A stretch of 62,750 nt of DNA, filler included, from Basidiobolus ranarum (GCA_040143965.1; 48 parts of 48 records of this genome joined end to end with filler, not necessarily neighbours in it), one strand, 5' to 3'; positions 3,943 to 54,920 are shown, numbered from the whole stretch's first letter. Program-made: numbers and translations. Notes: generated by a model from the letters alone, not told the origin.

Positions 3943-5155
3943 CAAGTAAGCAATGATAGACAACATCTATTTGCATCTGCCCCATCAGTAACAACAAAAG
4001 AAGACTCAGAAACAAGGTACATTGCTTCAGGAGCTTCCCAGCATATGTCAAACAGGAAAAATTGGTTTTCCAGCTTAAAACCAATCCAAACAAGGAAAGT
4101 CCACTTAGGTGGTTACTTTGCACTCAATGCAGTTGGTAAGGGCATAGATGTAATCAATTTTGACCAAAATTCAGCTGCACCATCTGCAAAATTAGATTAT
4201 GTACTCTATGTGCCAAATATAGCCAAGAATCTACTCTCAGTAAGTCAAGCAACAACTCAAGGATTAAACTTTATGTTCAGTAAGGCTGGATGCACTAATT
4301 CAGATCAGAATAATACCAAATTAGCTACTGGCATCAAACCTCAAAACTTATACAAGCTAGAAATCAACAAATTGCATTCTGAGCATGCAAACTTGTCCAA
4401 AACCAGTGAAATACGTAGTCCAATGTGGCATAGAAGATTAGGCCATATTGGGGAACAAAAACTGACTCAACTGATCTGAAATCAGCTTGTTTCAGGCTTG
4501 GAAATTGGAAATATCACTAAATTGGATCTGTGTGAAGGTTACATATATGCAAAACATCACAGACAGCCTTTTTCAAGCTCTGGAGAGATCAAATTCACTC
4601 AGAATTTTTCCCTGCTTCCTTCTGACTTATATGGGCCAATGTAAAATGTCTCACTGGGTGGGCAAAGGTACTTTATGACCTTTATTGATGACAAAACAAG
4701 AAATACTTGGGTATTCTTTCTCAAATCAAAATCTGAAGCCTTAGCTACATTCAAGCACTAAAAAGCAATGATAGAGAAAGAATATGCACAAAAAATAAGG
4801 GTACTAAGGAGTGAGAATGGTGAAGAATACTGCTCTAAAGACTTAACTAGTTTTTGCTCTAAACATGGAATTAATCAACAAACTACTATACCTTACACTC
4901 CACAGCAAAATGGAGTTGCAGAATGTGCTAATAGGACCATAGTGGAGATGGCAAGATCAATGCTAAATGATTAAAAGTTAGATTATCAATATTGAGCTGA
5001 ATATGTCTCTACTGCAGTCTATATCAAAAACAAATGCCCAACAAGATTGCTACAAAATTCTACTCCATTTGAAGCCCTATATGGATCAAAAACAAGTATG
5101 GATCATCTCAGGATCCTTGGTTGCACAGCATATTGCCTAATTCCAGCTCAAAAAT
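3943..5155 (+). mobile_element. Ty1/copia family B protease, GAG-pre-integrase and integrase fragment (decayed)
   Basis: YVPNIAKNLLSVS, WHRRLGH, LRSENGEEY, PYTPQQNGVAE. Starts CAAGTAAG, the same sequence that ends the LTR-B gag contig at 20905. Confidence 0.93.
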
Positions 5156-30176: not shown

Positions 30177-30554
30177 TCAACGTCAACAACCAAACGAGAG
30201 CTTATCAACCACCATCAAGACTTATACTTTCAACATAGTTTATATGAGCCAATTAACTTAAAGTATGCACATCAAATAGCTTCGTATGAAGTAACGAAAA
30301 TAAACACAGCGTACTTGAATAGCATCTCCTTACAATTCGGAAACAAGCTACGTATGTTCTTAAACATACTCTTAAAGAAGAATGAACGAATAAAGATAGC
30401 GAAAGATGAAATGAAGAAGGGTAACTGGGAGGAAGAAGTGTTGGCTGCAGTAGAATCTATGGTCGAGCAATGCAGTAAAATCAAAACGACTATTTCGTCT
30501 GGAAAAATTGATAATCTACCAAAAGAATTCCTATCTTACGATACTGACTATTGA
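30177..30554 (+). pseudogene. Fanzor1-like (TnpB-like) protein, N-terminal/REC-region fragment
   Basis: Open from the contig start: RELINHHQDLYFQHSLYEPINLKYAHQIASYEVTKINTAYLNSISLQFGNKLRMFLNILLKKNERI...SYDTDY*. The QIAxYExTKIxTAYLN...FGNxLR pattern is what I recall from Mucorales-type Fanzor1. No catalytic motif lies in this part. Confidence 0.65.
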
Positions 30555-31720
30555 AACACAATGTAGTCACCAAGTGTGTGATATTTCCAATCATGGTTGT
30601 CCATAGTGATCGGTTGCCAGCCATCCAACTCTGACAGACCCAAGCATCACATAAACATTTCCCCAGCTCAAGCAGGAAGAATTGCGGCATGAAATCATGG
30701 AGAATTCTGCCAACGATACGTATAAATTGGTTGAATCTCTCATAATCGGTAATAGAGCCGTAGAACTCGATCCAAGTCAAAGAATGCTATCGTAAGGTGT
30801 TGGTTTAAGTGCAAAGCAAAGCTAAGTCACATCATTCTGTTTGACTTGTTTAATATTGGTCTTCCTTATTGGACTCTATGATGTCAGGGTTCAGATACTC
30901 GCAAGCACTCTTTTCAGATACCAAAGCCAGCTGGTGCTGCATATTTCGTATTGGACACTAGAGATCATTCCACTAATTTTATGAAATGTCTAATTGATTA
31001 TTTTAATTTGATTTTTTTAATTCGTCACATTTTAGATTAAAACACTGTATTGGACACGAGAAGTTATGCGGCTCAATAGGTTGAGTATCCAATACATATA
31101 CGTCATAGGCTATGTTGTGGGTATTTCGCTCATCCTGTAGATAAATCGCGATGTCTCTTTTATTTTGGAGATTGATTGTTCAAGAATTGTACATTTTGCG
31201 GATGACAAACAAATATATGCATATGGTAAGAGGGTATATAGTGTTGATTGAGGCATTATGGCTCAATAAAGCAAAGAGCTTAAGATTGTGCAGCTTGCAT
31301 CAAATAAAATTCGGCGCTATCCTCCCCAGTGCGTGGAAGATCATAGAAGATTCGGCGCCAATTATCCATCTGAAAATTTTGCTAGNNNNNNNNNNNNNNN
31401 NNNNNNNNNNNNNNNNNNNNNNNNNNNNNTTAATTAATTAANNNNNNNNNNNNNNNNNNNNNNNNNNNNNNNNNNNNNNNNNNNNACAACTGTAAACTCA
31501 GCCAGCAGGGTCTTGAACAAGGATGCACTAGTAGTGATTTATCCAAGGATATGAAAAAGTTCCTTGCCTATGCAGACAAAGCTAGGGAAAAAATATAAAG
31601 TATCAGAAATATAACACCTACCTGTCAGTACTTCCTTTGAGCTGGTCAAGTCCTTTCTAGTCACACAGTAGCCTGTAACTGCCTCTAGTAGTCTCTCTTG
31701 AGCTTCCTCTTCAAAGGTAT

Positions 31721-41853: not shown

Positions 41854-43260
41854 NNNNNNNNNNNNNNNNNNNNNNNNNNNNNNNNNNNNNNNNNNNNTTA
41901 ATTAATTAANNNNNNNNNNNNNNNNNNNNNNNNNNNNNNNNNNNNNNNNNNNNATCTAAACTTCATTGACTTGCTTTTTCCTTGTGGTTTCATTGCCTTT
42001 GATGTGAGGTCAATAGCGGCTCCCCATACTACTTCTTTATTCAAGTGGCTGATGGTAGAATTCTTTAAAATTCGAGTACTAAGCCGAGAGGTTTAAAAGG
42101 TAATTAATTGTCTTGTTATGGTAACACGTGAAGGATATCTTTATCGGGTTACAGTCACGCATATTCTCTTCCCTTACAACTATGATCTATACTTTAGTAA
42201 AGTCAGACAACCCAAATTAAGCATGTGTCTTTAACGCTGCCTACTCTTTAATACCATACATTCTGGAACAGACATAGCCATTGAGATATTCAGCAGGCAA
42301 TACTAGCATCTTAGGTACTATGATAGGTGCCTATTGAAGAAGGATGGGCAGAAGGAAGAGAGGGGGCAATTATCGGCCATTATTTGATTCATTCCATGAA
42401 ACATTCATTGATAGAAACGGTGAAAAGGCCCTGTTGGTATATCAAACCAACTAGCACGAACTTACAGAGAGAAGCAAAGAATTATACGCTCATCGTTATA
42501 AATTAGGTTAGCCAAGCGGAGTTTTAGAGACCGTGTGCTGTCACAAAATGAGGGCTAGGAGGTGTTATTCTCTAGTTTCTTGGTAAATTGAGATTGGACT
42601 AATTATTACATCTTTTTGGACAGAGTAACAAATGGATAATAAAAGTTTAGATTCGATATTTTTTGAGAAGTATTTGAGTGTTCTGAAATTACCATCAGCA
42701 GTCAAGGTTTATGGCTAATTTGATCATCTATGTGATTCATAGACGCGATATTAGTCGCAATATGTATATATGTGTGTAATGGTGTGTTTGTTTCCTCAAA
42801 GTGGATGAGTTTGAGTTAGGAGAGAGAGTCTGGTCTGATTATATACCCACCACACTCTCATACTAGCATTCACAAACGTAATAAGACGACTATGAGATAA
42901 GTGAACAAAAAAATTGTAGACAAATTGTGTAACTCATTGCTGTAATTAATCAGTTTTTTTTGAGAGTATATGCTTAACAAACTTTTCTATCCCTAAACCA
43001 AAAAAGAGGTCAATTCGTCTTTTCTCTTTATGGAACCACCTCTAAAGATTATAGCAGTCAAGAGCTCAATCGCTGGTATTGGGTGGAAGTCACAATATGT
43101 TCCACAACTCATGTCACTTGTAGCTAACGTTCATATCCTTGTGTCACATACGTTTTCCTTNNNNNNNNNNNNNNNNNNNNNNNNNNNNNNNNNNNNNNNN
43201 NNNNTTAATTAATTAANNNNNNNNNNNNNNNNNNNNNNNNNNNNNNNNNNNNNNNNNNNN

Positions 43261-49795: not shown

Positions 49796-51002
49796 GAGAA
49801 TAATCAATAATATCATGGTGAATTATAAGATAGCTAAGTACTAAGCTATATGTAACTATATAGGTGTTTAGGCAATGCTAATTTCAATACTCTCCCTCAA
49901 CTAAATTGTCATAGAGACTAATCTTAACAAAGGTCTAAATTTCTCAAATTTCTGTCTAGCTATGGTTTGGTTAATATATCAGCAATCATGTCTTCTGTAG
50001 AACAATAAGTTAAGTCAATAAACTTATTCTCTATAATCTCTCTAATGAAGTGATGTTCAATATCTATGTGCTTGCTTCTATTATGAAACATGGGATTTTT
50101 AGCTAATTTGATACAACTTTAATTATCTTAAAATATTGTAGTTGGCAAATTTTGAGAATGACCCAAATCAGTTAAGAGTTTCCTTAACCTTATTGCTTCT
50201 ATTGGTGCTTCACAGGCAGCCATGTATTCAGCTTCTGTTGTTGAAAGTCCTATGGTAAGTTGTTTCTTTGAATTCCAAGAAATAGCTCCATTACAGCAAA
50301 GAAATAAGTATCCTGTTGTAGATCTCCTGTTTTCAATATCTCTTCCCCAATTTGCATCTGAATATCCCATCAAATCAAAGTTTGATCCAGAATATGTGTA
50401 TTTTCAGCATAGATCCACAGTACCTTTCAAATATCCCAAAATCCAGCTAACTGCTATGATTTGATCAGATCCATAATTTTGAACATATTGGCACATAACT
50501 CCCACAGAATATGCAATATCTGGCCATGTTCCAACCATGATATAAATCCAACTACCAAGCATAGATTGATAAGGAAATTTCTGGCTTTTATTTAAATCCA
50601 AGAACTTCTGGTTTGTGCCATTTTTGGTAAAGTTAAGATTTGTCTCCATCGAGGTAGATACTGGATTACATTTTCCAATTTAAACTTCTTTAATATATCT
50701 AGGATTTACTTAGACTGGTTTAAAGTTATTGTTTTGGTAGTTCTATCTATCTTAATTTGGATTCCAAGATAGTATGTCAGTTCACCCAGATCAGTCATTT
50801 TGAATTCAGCAGATAGGATGGATTTGGTTTTCTCCAAAGTCTTCAAGTCATTGGTTGCTCTAATAAGGTCATCCACATATAAGGCTAATATAACTGGGTT
50901 TGTCTTATCTGGCCTGAAATAGATACTATAGTCAGCATTACTCCTTTGGAATTTGAGTGTTTCTAAAAAAGTATCCATCTTGCTATTCCAAGCTCTTGGA
51001 GA
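49796..51002 (-). mobile_element. Ty1/copia family A RT-RNase H, polypurine tract and start of 3' LTR-A (49796-49889)
   Basis: LALYVDDLI, GYSDANWG...RRSTTGY, STTEAEYMA, SKHIDI; TTGAGGGAGAG before the LTR. Confidence 0.94.
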
Positions 51003-51102
51003 NNNNNNNNNNNNNNNNNNNNNNNNNNNNNNNNNNNNNNNNNNNNTTAATTAATTAANNNNNNNNNNNNNNNNNNNNNNNNNNNNNNNNNNNNNNNNNN
51101 NN

Positions 51103-51766
51103 AGATGAAGATGCACAGAATTAGTGTTTTATCTCTGGGGTAATCTATTGAAGCAATGACACATCTGATTGTGGCTGGACATTTGTTGACTGCAAGTTGG
51201 GCATCTATTTGCTGAATTCTTTACAGAAATTTGCCAAAAGCCACAGCCTGTTCTCATTGTTAATGGTAACATGAGTCAGCTATTTGCCAAGTGTCAGTGC
51301 TATTCAACTTTTCTGATGTTTAGCAATTTTTCCACTGTTAGTTTGCTGGTAAAGCATATTAATGTTATTGAGTTATGTCTGAGCAGTCAAGTATGTATAT
51401 ATGTAGAGACTAAACACAACCAGGCTGTTGTATTTTTTGATTCACATTTTGGCAGGAATACAAAGCCTAAAATATCTAAATAATGGCATGCATATTGTTT
51501 CTAATTCCTACAGCTGTAAACCTCGTAATTAGCCATTGAGAAGTTAGAATTTTGAAACATTGCCAGAAATTAAATAATGCATGCCAAACATGGGGTTCAA
51601 TATTTTAACATATATGAGTACCATAAAATATCATCAAGAAATCACTGTCACACCATCAAAATCCCTTGCAGAATGCAAGCCACTGATATTGTGATGGTTC
51701 TCTGATGGTTTGCAATCCAGAAGGGTGGATCTGATCCCAAGCAAATTGATTGTATTTTTGTTAGGG
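51103..51766 (+). mobile_element. CACTA/CMC transposase 3' end and transposase-side terminus
   Basis: Frame ends NTKPKISK*; the element ends ATTTTTGTTAGGG. Confidence 0.88.
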
Positions 51767-52308
51767 GATTGTTTTACGCGTAGAGTGTTTTCTGGAGTCT
51801 GCAAAATTTTTTAGGGTTTTCTGTGTTCATAAATCCATCTGGCTGGTCTATAAAGATCTCCTCAGTAAGCTCACCATTCAAAAAAGTAGTTTTAACATCT
51901 ATTTGATTTAAAATAAACTGATATTTAGCTGAAATTACTAAAATCAGTAGTACACCCCTTCCATTTGAGAGTATTCTTTAGCCAAAAGTCTGGCTTTATA
52001 TCTCTCTACAGATCCATCAGCTTGCTGCTTAACTTTAAGCACCCATTTGCATCTAATTGATTATCTGTCATTAGGTAGCTTAAGCAAAGTCCAAGTTTGG
52101 TTATCTATGAGTGACTGATACTCCTCTGCCATTGCAGCACTCCAAAAATTTGTGTTGAGGATCTCCATAGCCTCCTGTACTGATTTGGGTTCATCAGAAA
52201 AGGCTAAATAGCACCAGGCTCCTTTTGGCTAGTGTGAGAATAGTAATCAGACAGAGATCTCATCTGATCTGTTCTCCTAAGATGGGAAATGGGCACTACA
52301 ACTTCGTG
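51767..52308 (-). mobile_element. Chimeric copia RT fragments from two families, junction near 51950
   Basis: 51767-51950 resembles 45100-45270; 51951-52235 resembles 13800-14082. Confidence 0.8.
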
Positions 52309-52455
52309 NNNNNNNNNNNNNNNNNNNNNNNNNNNNNNNNNNNNNNNNNNNNTTAATTAATTAANNNNNNNNNNNNNNNNNNNNNNNNNNNNNNNNNNNN
52401 NNNNNNNNTACAATGTTAATTGACTCTACGTCCCATTCTAACGGTTCTGTCTTAG

Positions 52456-53020
52456 TTATATGTGGTGATTTTAACTCAACTCCGCACAGTCAGGTGTATC
52501 AGTATGTCAAAAATGGTGGGTTGTACCTTTTATCGGTTAAACAGGTAATTTGACTGACGTAGATTTCACTACCATAGGAGTTGTTGATCTATCTAGCATG
52601 GATGAGATATTCATGTCGGGACAGGTAGAGCCGTTCATCCCGCTCGCTTCTCAACCAAAACGCATGTACAATACCGAGACAATTCACGCTTTCAACGCAA
52701 CACAAATGAGGTTCCCGGAAGATGATTCCGACCGTCGACACTTACTTCAACACACATTCAAGTTCTTCTCTGGTTACGAGCACGCTGTGCCGTCTGAGGA
52801 ATTCACCACGCTTCATGATGATGCGAAACTCATATGTGATTATATATTTTTCGGCGGACTGAACGAGGAAATACGAGATTCTCTTGCATGTACTAAGCGT
52901 TTAACTCTCCCCAAAATTTCGGATTGCAGCATCCCTGGTATACCCACTAAAGACGTACCCTCAGATCACTTGCCATTGGCTCTCACATTCTGTTGGAGTT
53001 CTTGCAGTAATTTAATCTAA
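52456..53020 (+). CDS. 3' end of an Angel/CCR4-family EEP phosphatase/nuclease gene (exons 52456-52515 and 52578-53020)
   Basis: ICGDFNSTPHSQVY, SGQ, LQHTFKFFSGY, TTLH...CDYIFF, PSDHLPL. A 62-nt GT-AG intron with CTGAC branch site splices in frame. Confidence 0.88.
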
Positions 53021-53147
53021 AATGAGATGAATTAAAATAATCAATTAGACATTTCATAAAATAAATGGGATGATCGCAAAAAATTGGAGATAAGTGAACA
53101 AAGCACATTAGACACAAGTGTTAAAAGAAAAAGTGTTCAAAGACTTA

Positions 53148-53300
53148 CTCTGTATCAAATGTTTAGTGTAGCGATAACCACACACGATTGTTTGCTTTTT
53201 GAGTTGGTCGACTGCTGCTAGCTGAAGAGATAGCCCTTCCTTTATACTCGGTAGAGAGAGGTTTCTTCAATCTGCAAAAACCTTCTGGTCTTTCCCCATT
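53148..53300 (-). ncRNA. Candidate Fanzor omega-RNA scaffold overlapping the ORF 3' end and the element terminus
   Basis: Position is as expected for TnpB/Fanzor. Hairpins AGGTTTTT..AAGAAACCT and GTGTGGT-TATC-GCTACAC; ends ...GATACAGAG before TA. The 5' boundary is a guess. Confidence 0.45.
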
Positions 53301-53614
53301 TAAGCGCAAGTTAAAATGGGTATGTCTAAGGTTCAAAGTAGCAGCCAGGTCACGATTCCAAAGACAGTGGTGAGAATCTTCAGTACTCTCCTCAGTAGTA
53401 TTGTTCACGGCCTTTAAACACTGTTGGTTTTTGCACCTGAACAGAAATTAGGTTTGAAACTTTCACTGGTATATAAAAAGCGTTTACCTTAAAAGGCCAC
53501 AATAGGATACTTTTCTCTTTTGTGTGGTCTAGGATTTTGTACTTTTTGAAACTTTTCCAGTTCACCGTTCTGGCAAGTAGGGCACAGACTTGAGGTTATA
53601 AACTCGTCAAGGAG
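53163..53614 (-). pseudogene. Fanzor1-like (TnpB-like RuvC) nuclease, C-terminal part; exons 53614-53488 and 53436-53163; frameshifted
   Basis: LLDEFITSSLCPTC (RuvC-II plus CxxC), VQNPRPH, GLLR/CKNQQC, LWNRDLAATLN (RuvC-III), RP. 51-nt intron GTAAAC...CTAAT...TTCAG. Confidence 0.88.
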
Positions 53615-53714: not shown

Positions 53715-54920
53715 ATACTCCTCAAGCACTTTGACTATTTTTGTACATCCTTGTAGTGTGACACTACTGAGGGTGCTTTGCAGTGTTTGTGCGGCTTTTT
53801 GCTTGCCTTTACCTTTGGGACTAATATCAACAATTTGAAAAGTACCAGTTCAGGTTGGAGAGCCATGAGTTTTATATGTGGTGTTGTGGCTTGTTGAGAG
53901 GTGCCAGGTGTTGGATAAACTTCCAAAATTAGCATTGTTCCAACTGGTGTACCCAGTTCCATAGTGGAATTAAGCTTTTTTGACAGTATATCTGACTCTG
54001 GAATTGCCAATCTTTGTAATGGTGTGAAGAATTCAGTAAGTGAGACAGTAGAGCCTAAACTGACTGGCTCCTTTGCCTTTCCCTTACGTTTACTAACTTC
54101 CTGCTCCTTCGGTACTTCTTTAGCTGCTTTTCTTTCTTTTCCAAGTCAATCAGTGCGTACATTTTTGAGATGTTTCATGAATTGGCCTATACTAGCCCAA
54201 TTGCCAATTGCTTGCAAAAACCCAGGATAAGCCCCATGAAGTAGGTCAAGAACCTTCAGAGTAATGCCTGGTTTTTGGTTTTTCCACAATTGACTCAAAT
54301 CCAAGTGATTTTGGGCAAGATTCTGCACAGTTTCCAAAATATTAAACCACTCATCATCAGAGCAAGTGATGGCAGCTCTGACATTCAGAGTCTTTTGGTT
54401 TGCTGGTGTAGTGGAATCAAAACTTAATTTTGCCGGTCTTTGTAATGGTGTGAAGAATTCAGTAAGTGAGACAGTAGAGCCTAAACTCACTGGCTCCTTT
54501 GCCTTTCCCTTAGGTTTACTAACTTCCTGCAGCTTGAGTACCTCTTTAGCTGCTTTTCTTTCTTTTCCAAGTCAATAAATGTGTACATTTTTGAGATGTT
54601 TCATGAATAGGCCTATACTAGCCCAATTGCCTTTTGCTTGCCAGAACCAAGGATAAGCCACATGAAATTAGTCAAGAACCTTCAGAGTAATGCCTGGTTT
54701 TTGGTTTTCCCACAATTGGCTCAAATCCAGGTGATTTTGGGCAAGATTCCACACAGTTTCCAAAATGTTAAATCACTAATCATCAGAGCAAGTGTGGCAG
54801 CTCTGAAATTCAGAGTCTTTTGGTTTACTGGTTTCCTATGAGAACTCTACCTTCATGTGCACAGGCAATTTTGGGTTGTTTTGTAGGCTTAATGGTCCAA
54901 CACATATTCTACTCTGCTAG
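53715..54920 (-). mobile_element. CACTA/CMC ORF2 central region with a 426-nt tandem duplication
   Basis: Links the ORF2 pieces at 14447-15405 and 7882-8430. TCTTTGTAATGGTG occurs at 54011 and 54437. Confidence 0.87.

Follow-up and report, generated by a model that had tools for sequence, protein, structure and literature searches.

A Fanzor1 transposon remnant beside a DNase-I-like gene in a Basidiobolus-like fungus and its possible exchange with the Rhizopus arrhizus/delemar lineage

The window, that is, the whole stretch of DNA analysed (62,750 nt), was composed of 48 contigs of 1205-1214 bp, which were ordered by length and linked via N runs around TTAATTAATTAA. Since the window consists of concatenated contigs, genes on different contigs in it are not genomic neighbours. 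The locus occupied a single contig, on which the 3' part of a host gene converged with the 3' part of a Fanzor1 gene and its transposon end. The features were as follows:

52409-53614: contig carrying the Fanzor1 fragment
52410..53020, plus strand: 3' part of a host DNase-I-like gene (Exo_endo_phos type), convergent with the Fanzor1 remnant; exon to 52515, 62-nt intron at 52516-52577, exon to the stop codon at 53018-53020
53006..53162, minus strand: non-coding 3' stretch of the element, reaching from the stop codon to the right TIR and ending ..TTTTAGATTAAATTACT at 53006
53163..53436, minus strand: Fanzor1 exon 2, with CKNQQC, the RuvC-III motif WNRDLAATLN, the C-terminal tail and the stop codon at 53165-53163
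53437..53487, minus strand: 51-nt spliceosomal intron, GTAAAC...CTAAT...CAG; an in-frame stop follows the exon end immediately
53488..53500, minus strand: break and exon end; a 10-nt deletion between 53500 and 53499 relative to locus L001, the rest encoding GLLR
53501..53614, minus strand: Fanzor1 part 1, 38 codons to ..KYPI, truncated where the contig stops at 53614; includes LLDEF with its conserved Glu, and CPTC, the first Cys pair of the zinc ribbon

The minus strand of 53163-53614 encoded the last ~130 residues of Fanzor1. Frame 1 of this strand read LLDEFITSSLCPTCQNGELEKFQKVQNPRPHKREKYPIV and then a stop; bases 53498-53488 encoded GLLR, one base over from frame 1; and the ORF at 53447-53163 read ..CKNQQC..LWNRDLAATLNLRH..GERP.., with its stop codon at 53165-53163. 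The window being made of joined contigs, the ORF was cut at 53614 by the contig end and not by biology. RuvC-I and all upstream Fanzor1 sequence were off the contig, on which the minus-strand frame ran from 53614 to the stop at 53165-53163.

Two other regions of the window were observed. The contig at 53715-54920 carried adjacent minus-strand ORFs of 136 and 141 aa at 53735-54571. Both opened with ~45 near-identical residues (LGKERKAAKEV..SLTEFFTPLQR), a third partial repeat followed, and the region formed a tandem repeat with a unit of ~425 bp. At 49796-52308, ORFs on three contigs contained stretches (..LYVDDLI.., ..CSTEDMIADILTKP) which may be pieces of Ty1/copia-type polymerases.

The relationship of the fragment was investigated by protein comparison. 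A tblastn alignment of the Rhizopus protein P0004 with the fragment showed 82% identity over 39 aa and 60% over 88 aa, with a joint E of 5e-38. Piece 1 matched PDB 9cf0 (Parasitella parasitica Fanzor 1) at chain residues 1162-1199 with an E of 8.8e-9; piece 2 matched the same chain at 1204-1254 with an E of 0.0025, collinear with piece 1. Against 8gkh (Spizellomyces punctatus Fanzor 1), piece 1 gave an E of 0.0088 and piece 2 had no match. The P0004 alignment and the separate collinear 9cf0 matches indicated that the Fanzor1 likeness was not due to chance, and the assignment to a Fanzor1 C-terminus in the original prediction was thus borne out.

A word-based search with piece 2 returned four Rhizopus arrhizus/delemar proteins (P0001-P0004) with 60-61% identity. 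The longest of these, P0004 (577 aa), matched 9cf0 at E 1.6e-140 and 8gkh at E 3e-50. An exhaustive HMMER search with P0004 returned 2735 cluster representatives at E<=1e-3, 323 of them at E<=1e-30, and the named relatives spanned Mucorales, Coemansia and Syncephalis. Pfam gave no match for the Fanzor1 pieces of the window at E<=10. PF07282 scored 14.7-15.2 bits with the four Rhizopus relatives, below its gathering cut-off of 26.3. PF26935 is a precomputed label on many relatives, and the Pfam search of the four Rhizopus proteins did not report it. Pfam is nearly blind to this Fanzor1 family.

Metagenome contigs were scanned with a nine-member family alignment, which gave 11 loci; an exact 28-mer of the shared repeat had no matches in these contigs. 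One locus, L001, encodes P0004 at 99.6-100% identity and is therefore referred to as Rhizopus-type. At 2220-2640 of L001, the first 70 codons (MEPPL..VDFF, then stop) were one base out of frame, at a T run, and the annotated P0004 starts at an internal Met just downstream of this offset. P0004 is therefore probably an incomplete gene model, derived from a copy that is frameshifted or mis-assembled.

L001 was used for comparison at the DNA level. In the alignment, the window copy was shorter by exactly 10 bases between 53500 and 53499. This deletion, the evidence for which is a single short-contig assembly, caused a frameshift and the loss of three residues, which are D-R-H in Rhizopus and x-C-H in most relatives (55-protein alignment). 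An uninterrupted reading frame was absent from the window copy owing to this frameshift, which touches its activity and not its descent. Exon 2 showed a two-codon in-frame gap relative to L001, and the position of the L001 stop codon was TGG in the window copy, which extended the ORF by five codons.

L001 has a 59-nt GT..AG intron at 4038-4096, at the same codon boundary (..GLLR / CKN..) as the 51-nt intron of the window, and its residues 1-490 and 488-577 are in different frames around this intron. The two introns were homologous, with 41 of 47 aligned bases identical; that of the window contained CTAAT as a branch-like site. The likeness between the two DNAs continued beyond the stop codon. 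All six of the more distant loci (L002, L003, L005-L008) read straight through this codon, and the intron is therefore a derived mark common to the window and L001 copies. Short introns fit this genome, since the host gene on the same contig has one of 62 nt. The original prediction had placed two minus-strand pieces with GLLR at 53163-53614, a small frameshifting deletion and a 51-nt intron at 53487-53437. Both pieces and GLLR were found at exactly these coordinates, the deletion was resolved to the 10-nt gap, and the intron acquired a homologue at the same codon.

The TIRs of L001 were 135 nt long and 89% complementary, at 1721-1855 and 4446-4580. They enclosed ~2.86 kb, in which Fanzor was the only recognisable gene, so that the proposal of a DNA transposon carrying the nuclease gene agrees with a TIR-bounded element. 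By blastn, the 3' region of the window matched both L001 TIRs. From the stop codon to the end, 124 of 157 bases were identical to L001 4362-4577, and the window and L001 TIRs were identical at 62 of 87 bases. Four TIR ends were aligned: the two of L001, the window 3' region and an 88-bp copy at 30959-31046. All stopped at ..TTTTAGATTAAA(AC/TT)ACT, after which the flanks diverged, which places the element's right end in the window at 53006. Only this right end was present on the contig.

Fanzor guide RNAs are described in the interval from the stop codon to the 3' inverted repeat (PMC10432273), and in known Fanzor1 loci the guide RNA comes from this end of the element (PMC10432273; 10.1101/2023.06.13.544871). 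An omega-RNA would be expected within 53006..53162. When the 3' region was folded, the z-scores were -0.26, -0.06 and +0.22; alifold of the four TIR copies gave six invariant pairs and no covariation; and Rfam had no match on the contig of the fragment at E<=1. These results neither support nor argue against 53006-53095 as an omega-RNA scaffold. An exact 11-bp direct repeat flanked the 88-bp TIR fragment (30948-30958 / 31047-31057). The flanks of L001 matched at 6/9 positions by eye, and a TA duplication was also readable there. The Rhizopus element ROr-4 is called MuDR-like with 9-bp TSDs (PMC3627910). A Pfam search of seven ORFs on the other two Fanzor-bearing contigs found no family for six of them and sub-threshold noise for one; no transposase was among them.

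The right end of the element lay within two codons of the end of the convergent host gene. This gene was 80% identical to Basidiobolus meristosporus P0158 (the only match, E 2e-72), which carries a precomputed PF03372 label; Pfam on the host EEP-type ORF itself found nothing at E<=10. The last residue of P0158 aligned to 53002. The window ORF added one codon of its own and then continued in transposon sequence, so that the last five codons and the stop codon of the host gene (53006-53020) derive from the transposon end. Since the host ORF now ends five codons inside the TIR, the insertion replaced the native C-terminal end and stop codon. A guide RNA from the 53006 end, if made, would be antisense to the end of the host gene.

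Other copies in the window were searched by tblastn with the first 154 proteins collected. The 215 matches fell in four places, including the 53163-53614 fragment. The three additional places and an isolated TIR copy were as follows:

30177..30551, plus strand, other contig (tblastn matches over 30177-30629): second Fanzor1 remnant, REC region, about P0004 1-112, 55% identity, with a 13-residue gap and a stop
30959..31046, plus strand: isolated copy of the TIR terminus, 88 bp, with a 14-nt insertion, flanked by the 11-bp direct repeat
41955..42161, minus strand: third Fanzor1 remnant, about P0004 152-212, 57% identity, with an in-frame stop, running off the contig
43000..43160, plus strand: fourth Fanzor1 remnant, 5' leader and first ~44 codons (MEPPLKII..), starting as in L001; tblastn matches over 43030-43158

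The three extra Fanzor1 remnants were located on two other contigs, and all were fragments. The nucleotide identity of the extra copies to L001 was 71-84%, with 84% for the third remnant (L001 3081-3204) and 83% for the fourth (L001 2185-2350). The third and fourth remnants diverge on one 1.2-kb contig, and the ~870 bp between them had no family match. The 88-bp copy had no TIR terminus on its left side, and the REC-region remnant lay ~400 bp upstream on the same strand. The 88-bp copy could be what remains of an element that lost its interior, together with its target duplication, or a 'ghost'-like copy devoid of an ORF. To the extent that 58 kb of short contigs can tell, the element is present in this genome in multiple, decayed copies. 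No intact Basidiobolus Fanzor1 copy was found, and there were no Basidiobolus proteins among the 119 matches listed. The only Basidiobolus protein of the family seen was P0080 of Basidiobolus ranarum (181 aa), which is degenerate, with DQF for DEF, CPTF for CPTC and no NRD.

Conservation was counted in an alignment of 138 proteins of at least 480 aa out of 261 collected; the unrelated P0158 was left out. The counts were as follows:

RuvC-I Asp (..IDPGRRD..): D in 131/138 relatives
Glu of ..DEF.TS..: E in 124/138
Four zinc-ribbon Cys: C in 125, 128, 107 and 97 of 138
His before GLLRC: H in 110/138
RuvC-III Asp: D in 95/138, N in 10, gaps in 30

The window fragment kept the Glu, all four Cys and the RuvC-III Asp. 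In its LLDEFITSS, the conserved Glu stood beside the TNB domain and was followed by [TS][TS]. The position of this Glu beside the TNB domain agrees with how the catalytic triad is described in PMC11423790 and with the 'alternative glutamate' in the preprint by Saito et al. (10.1101/2023.06.13.544871). The putative catalytic role of this Glu is taken from such descriptions and not from PpFz1 residue numbers. The C4 zinc ribbon (CPTC + CKNQQC) was present between the Glu and RuvC-III, but its Cys pairs are now in different frames, and the three residues deleted between them include the His of the list above. RuvC-III read LWNRDLAATLN. Apart from its first D, the motif D..[TS][TS]xx[C4 zinc finger]..RD given by Bao & Jurka 2013 (PMC3627910) was matched by the fragment. 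The zinc-ribbon and RuvC-III signatures with the catalytic Glu and Asp, which had been noticed previously, can thus be read directly in the window frames, and the RuvC-I that the original prediction expected upstream in homologous loci is represented in nearly all relatives by the Asp counted above.

Among known systems, Parasitella PpFz1 (PDB 9cf0-9cf3; Xu et al. 2024, Cell) has been assayed and solved, with a TAM of 5'-ATN-3' and a 75-nt omega-RNA (PMC11423790). It shares with the window fragment the local order L[LI]DEF.TS.CP.C, NPRPH, GLLRCKN..C and LWNRD.AA.LN. PpFz1 is intact and active, whereas the window copy is frameshifted and lacks three residues, which are L-C-H in PpFz1. P0004, at its residues 365-375, lacks anything equivalent to ~100 residues of PpFz1 that lie inside the RuvC region (9cf0 chain 986-1092). 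An FRI insertion is reported for Parasitella and Rhizopus (PMC11423790); the 986-1092 stretch may be this insertion, and the sub-family of P0004 would then lack it.

The nearest relatives were the Rhizopus Fanzor1 elements (ROr, P0001-P0004, L001), with 60-82% protein identity and 78% nucleotide identity over 125 codons. They have the intron site, an alignable 3' region and the TIR end in common with the window copy, which differs in its Basidiobolus-like host, 10-nt deletion, 2-codon gap and shifted stop. SpuFz1 of Spizellomyces (PDB 8gkh; Saito et al. 2023, Nature) has the same Fanzor1 architecture (PMC10432273), but is more distant, as the 8gkh comparison indicated. Its IRs are 30 nt long, compared with the 135-nt TIRs of L001, and its genome is described as holding many full, partial and ORF-less ('ghost') copies (PMC10432273). 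The prokaryotic TnpB of IS200/IS605 (PF07282, Cas12f1-like TNB domain) has the same D..[TS][TS]xx[C4 zinc finger]..RD order, of which all except the first D is visible in the fragment. However, PF07282 was sub-threshold for the relatives (15 versus 26.3 bits) and had no match for the window pieces, and the window element, a eukaryotic one, has TIRs as well as an intron. That Fanzor genes can contain introns is already published (10.1101/2023.06.13.544871), and Fanzor1 families of Rhizopus oryzae, Mucor and Phycomyces were described by Bao & Jurka 2013 (Table 1, PMC3627910). The earlier suggestion of an uncharacterised family worth mining therefore did not hold, since PpFz1 is already assayed and solved and the Rhizopus families date from 2013. 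The value as a nuclease resource is low: the copy is dead, and the family has a solved, assayed member and thousands of relatives.

Very probably, the fragment is the dead 3' third of a Fanzor1 gene, and the multi-copy TIR transposon to which it belongs is of the Rhizopus/Parasitella (PpFz1) type and resides in a Basidiobolus-like fungus. As a eukaryotic TnpB-like, omega-RNA-guided RuvC nuclease, Fanzor1 of this clade would cleave DNA in the manner of PpFz1 and SpuFz1. In intact relatives, the gene would be transcribed and the short intron between the ..GLLR and CKN.. codons spliced out. These steps are established for PpFz1 and SpuFz1 in PMC11423790, PMC10432273 and 10.1101/2023.06.13.544871, and presumably apply to the window family. 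In the window copy, the 10-nt deletion would have abolished function by shifting the frame inside the zinc ribbon and removing a near-invariant His, in line with the predicted inactivity. The end of the element, adjoining the convergent DNase-I-like gene, would now supply that gene's last five codons and stop. The label Mucorales-type was right for the relatives, the nearest proteins being Rhizopus arrhizus/delemar Fanzor1, but not for the host: the linked DNase-I-like gene and the nearest relative, P0080 of Basidiobolus ranarum, point to a Basidiobolus-like fungus.

It is very unlikely that the copy is alive, either because the 10-nt gap is an assembly artefact or because a 5' splice site at 53510 gives an in-frame mRNA. 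The retention of the Glu, the four Cys and the RuvC-III Asp would fit a live copy, as would a dN/dS of 0.25 against L001. All GT..AG removals of 20-200 nt in the fragment were enumerated; 13 gave one open frame, and the best of these, a 74-nt removal (53510-53437), joins both frames. However, it scored 382 against P0004, compared with 435 for the model of a frameshift plus the 51-nt intron, and would cost about 12 conserved zinc-ribbon residues, dropping YPIV..GLLR with columns in which H, G and L are found in 110, 118 and 121 of 138 proteins. The 10-nt gap lies outside a homopolymer and would be an atypical assembly error, the three other window copies are truncated or carry a stop, and P0080 is itself degenerate. 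The probability is very small that the contig is a chimera or contaminant in which Mucorales Fanzor DNA was mis-joined to Basidiobolus-like DNA. The contigs are only ~1.2 kb and repeat-rich, and the nearest full-length relatives are all from Rhizopus. Yet the two DNAs meet precisely at the TIR end that four copies have in common; nucleotide identity between the window copy and the Rhizopus-type copy is only 78%; the same assembly has three further remnants on other contigs; and the closest relative is a protein annotated on a 16-kb contig of an independent Basidiobolus ranarum assembly. A dead element resident in the Basidiobolus-like genome thus remains the preferred reading.

To place this element, a tree of 52 named proteins was built, with the window read-through added (X at the break) and Parasitella P0240 dropped for short coverage. 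The window sequence paired with P0080 at 99/99 support (80% over 99 columns), and this pair grouped with the R. arrhizus/delemar clade (support 91/94), to the exclusion of R. microsporus, Gilbertella, Helicostylum, Coemansia and Syncephalis. The path length between the window sequence and P0004 was 0.44; from P0004, the paths to R. microsporus, Gilbertella and Coemansia were 0.50, 0.71 and 1.43, respectively. The AU test rejected Coemansia, Syncephalis, Basidiobolus and the window as one clade (p 0.006), a result which says little on Basidiobolus, because the group was named post hoc and Coemansia and Syncephalis already interleave with Mucorales. Over 125 codons, the window copy and L001 had a nucleotide identity of 77.9%, a pS of 0.455, a pN of 0.158 and a dN/dS of 0.25; synonymous divergence (dS) was about 0.7. 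The dN/dS indicates that the lineage coded for a working protein most of the time since the split, and that the frameshift is therefore late.

Basidiobolus and Rhizopus belong to different phyla (Basidiobolomycota and Mucoromycota, respectively), and neutral sites should be saturated at this depth. The alignable intron and 3' region and the unsaturated pS across different phyla make horizontal transfer the more likely origin. With modest confidence, we lean towards a recent horizontal movement of the Fanzor1 TIR transposon between the Rhizopus arrhizus/delemar lineage and Basidiobolus, followed by decay, in which the insertion would have rewritten the last codons of a host nuclease-family gene. 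The Rhizopus likeness might instead go back to an ancient Fanzor1 lineage that was passed down vertically among zygomycete fungi and whose paralogues were lost differentially, with no horizontal transfer, an origin we regard as possible though rather doubtful. The family is spread over Mucorales, Coemansia and Syncephalis, old paralogues abound in transposon trees, the Coemansia rows are already scattered, and support for Basidiobolus with the R. arrhizus/delemar clade is only 91/94, all of which suit vertical descent. Against it, the intron (41/47), 3' region (124/157) and TIR (62/87) are still alignable, with pS unsaturated at 0.455; the intron at this codon is limited to the window and L001, being missing in 6/6 more distant loci; and the window sequence is nearer to P0004 (0.44) than P0004 is to R. 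microsporus (0.50), Gilbertella (0.71) or Coemansia (1.43).

Horizontal spread has already been raised for Parasitella and Mucorales (PMC11423790), and a literature search found no paper that names both Fanzor and Basidiobolus. The single mildly new aspect is a probable transfer between the Rhizopus and Basidiobolus lineages. In addition, a host gene here takes its stop codon from a Fanzor element. If the horizontal origin is true, the window copy would be a fossil of the transfer, and an element in two fungal phyla with a derived intron and unsaturated synonymous divergence would provide a concrete, datable case for the horizontal spread of Fanzor.
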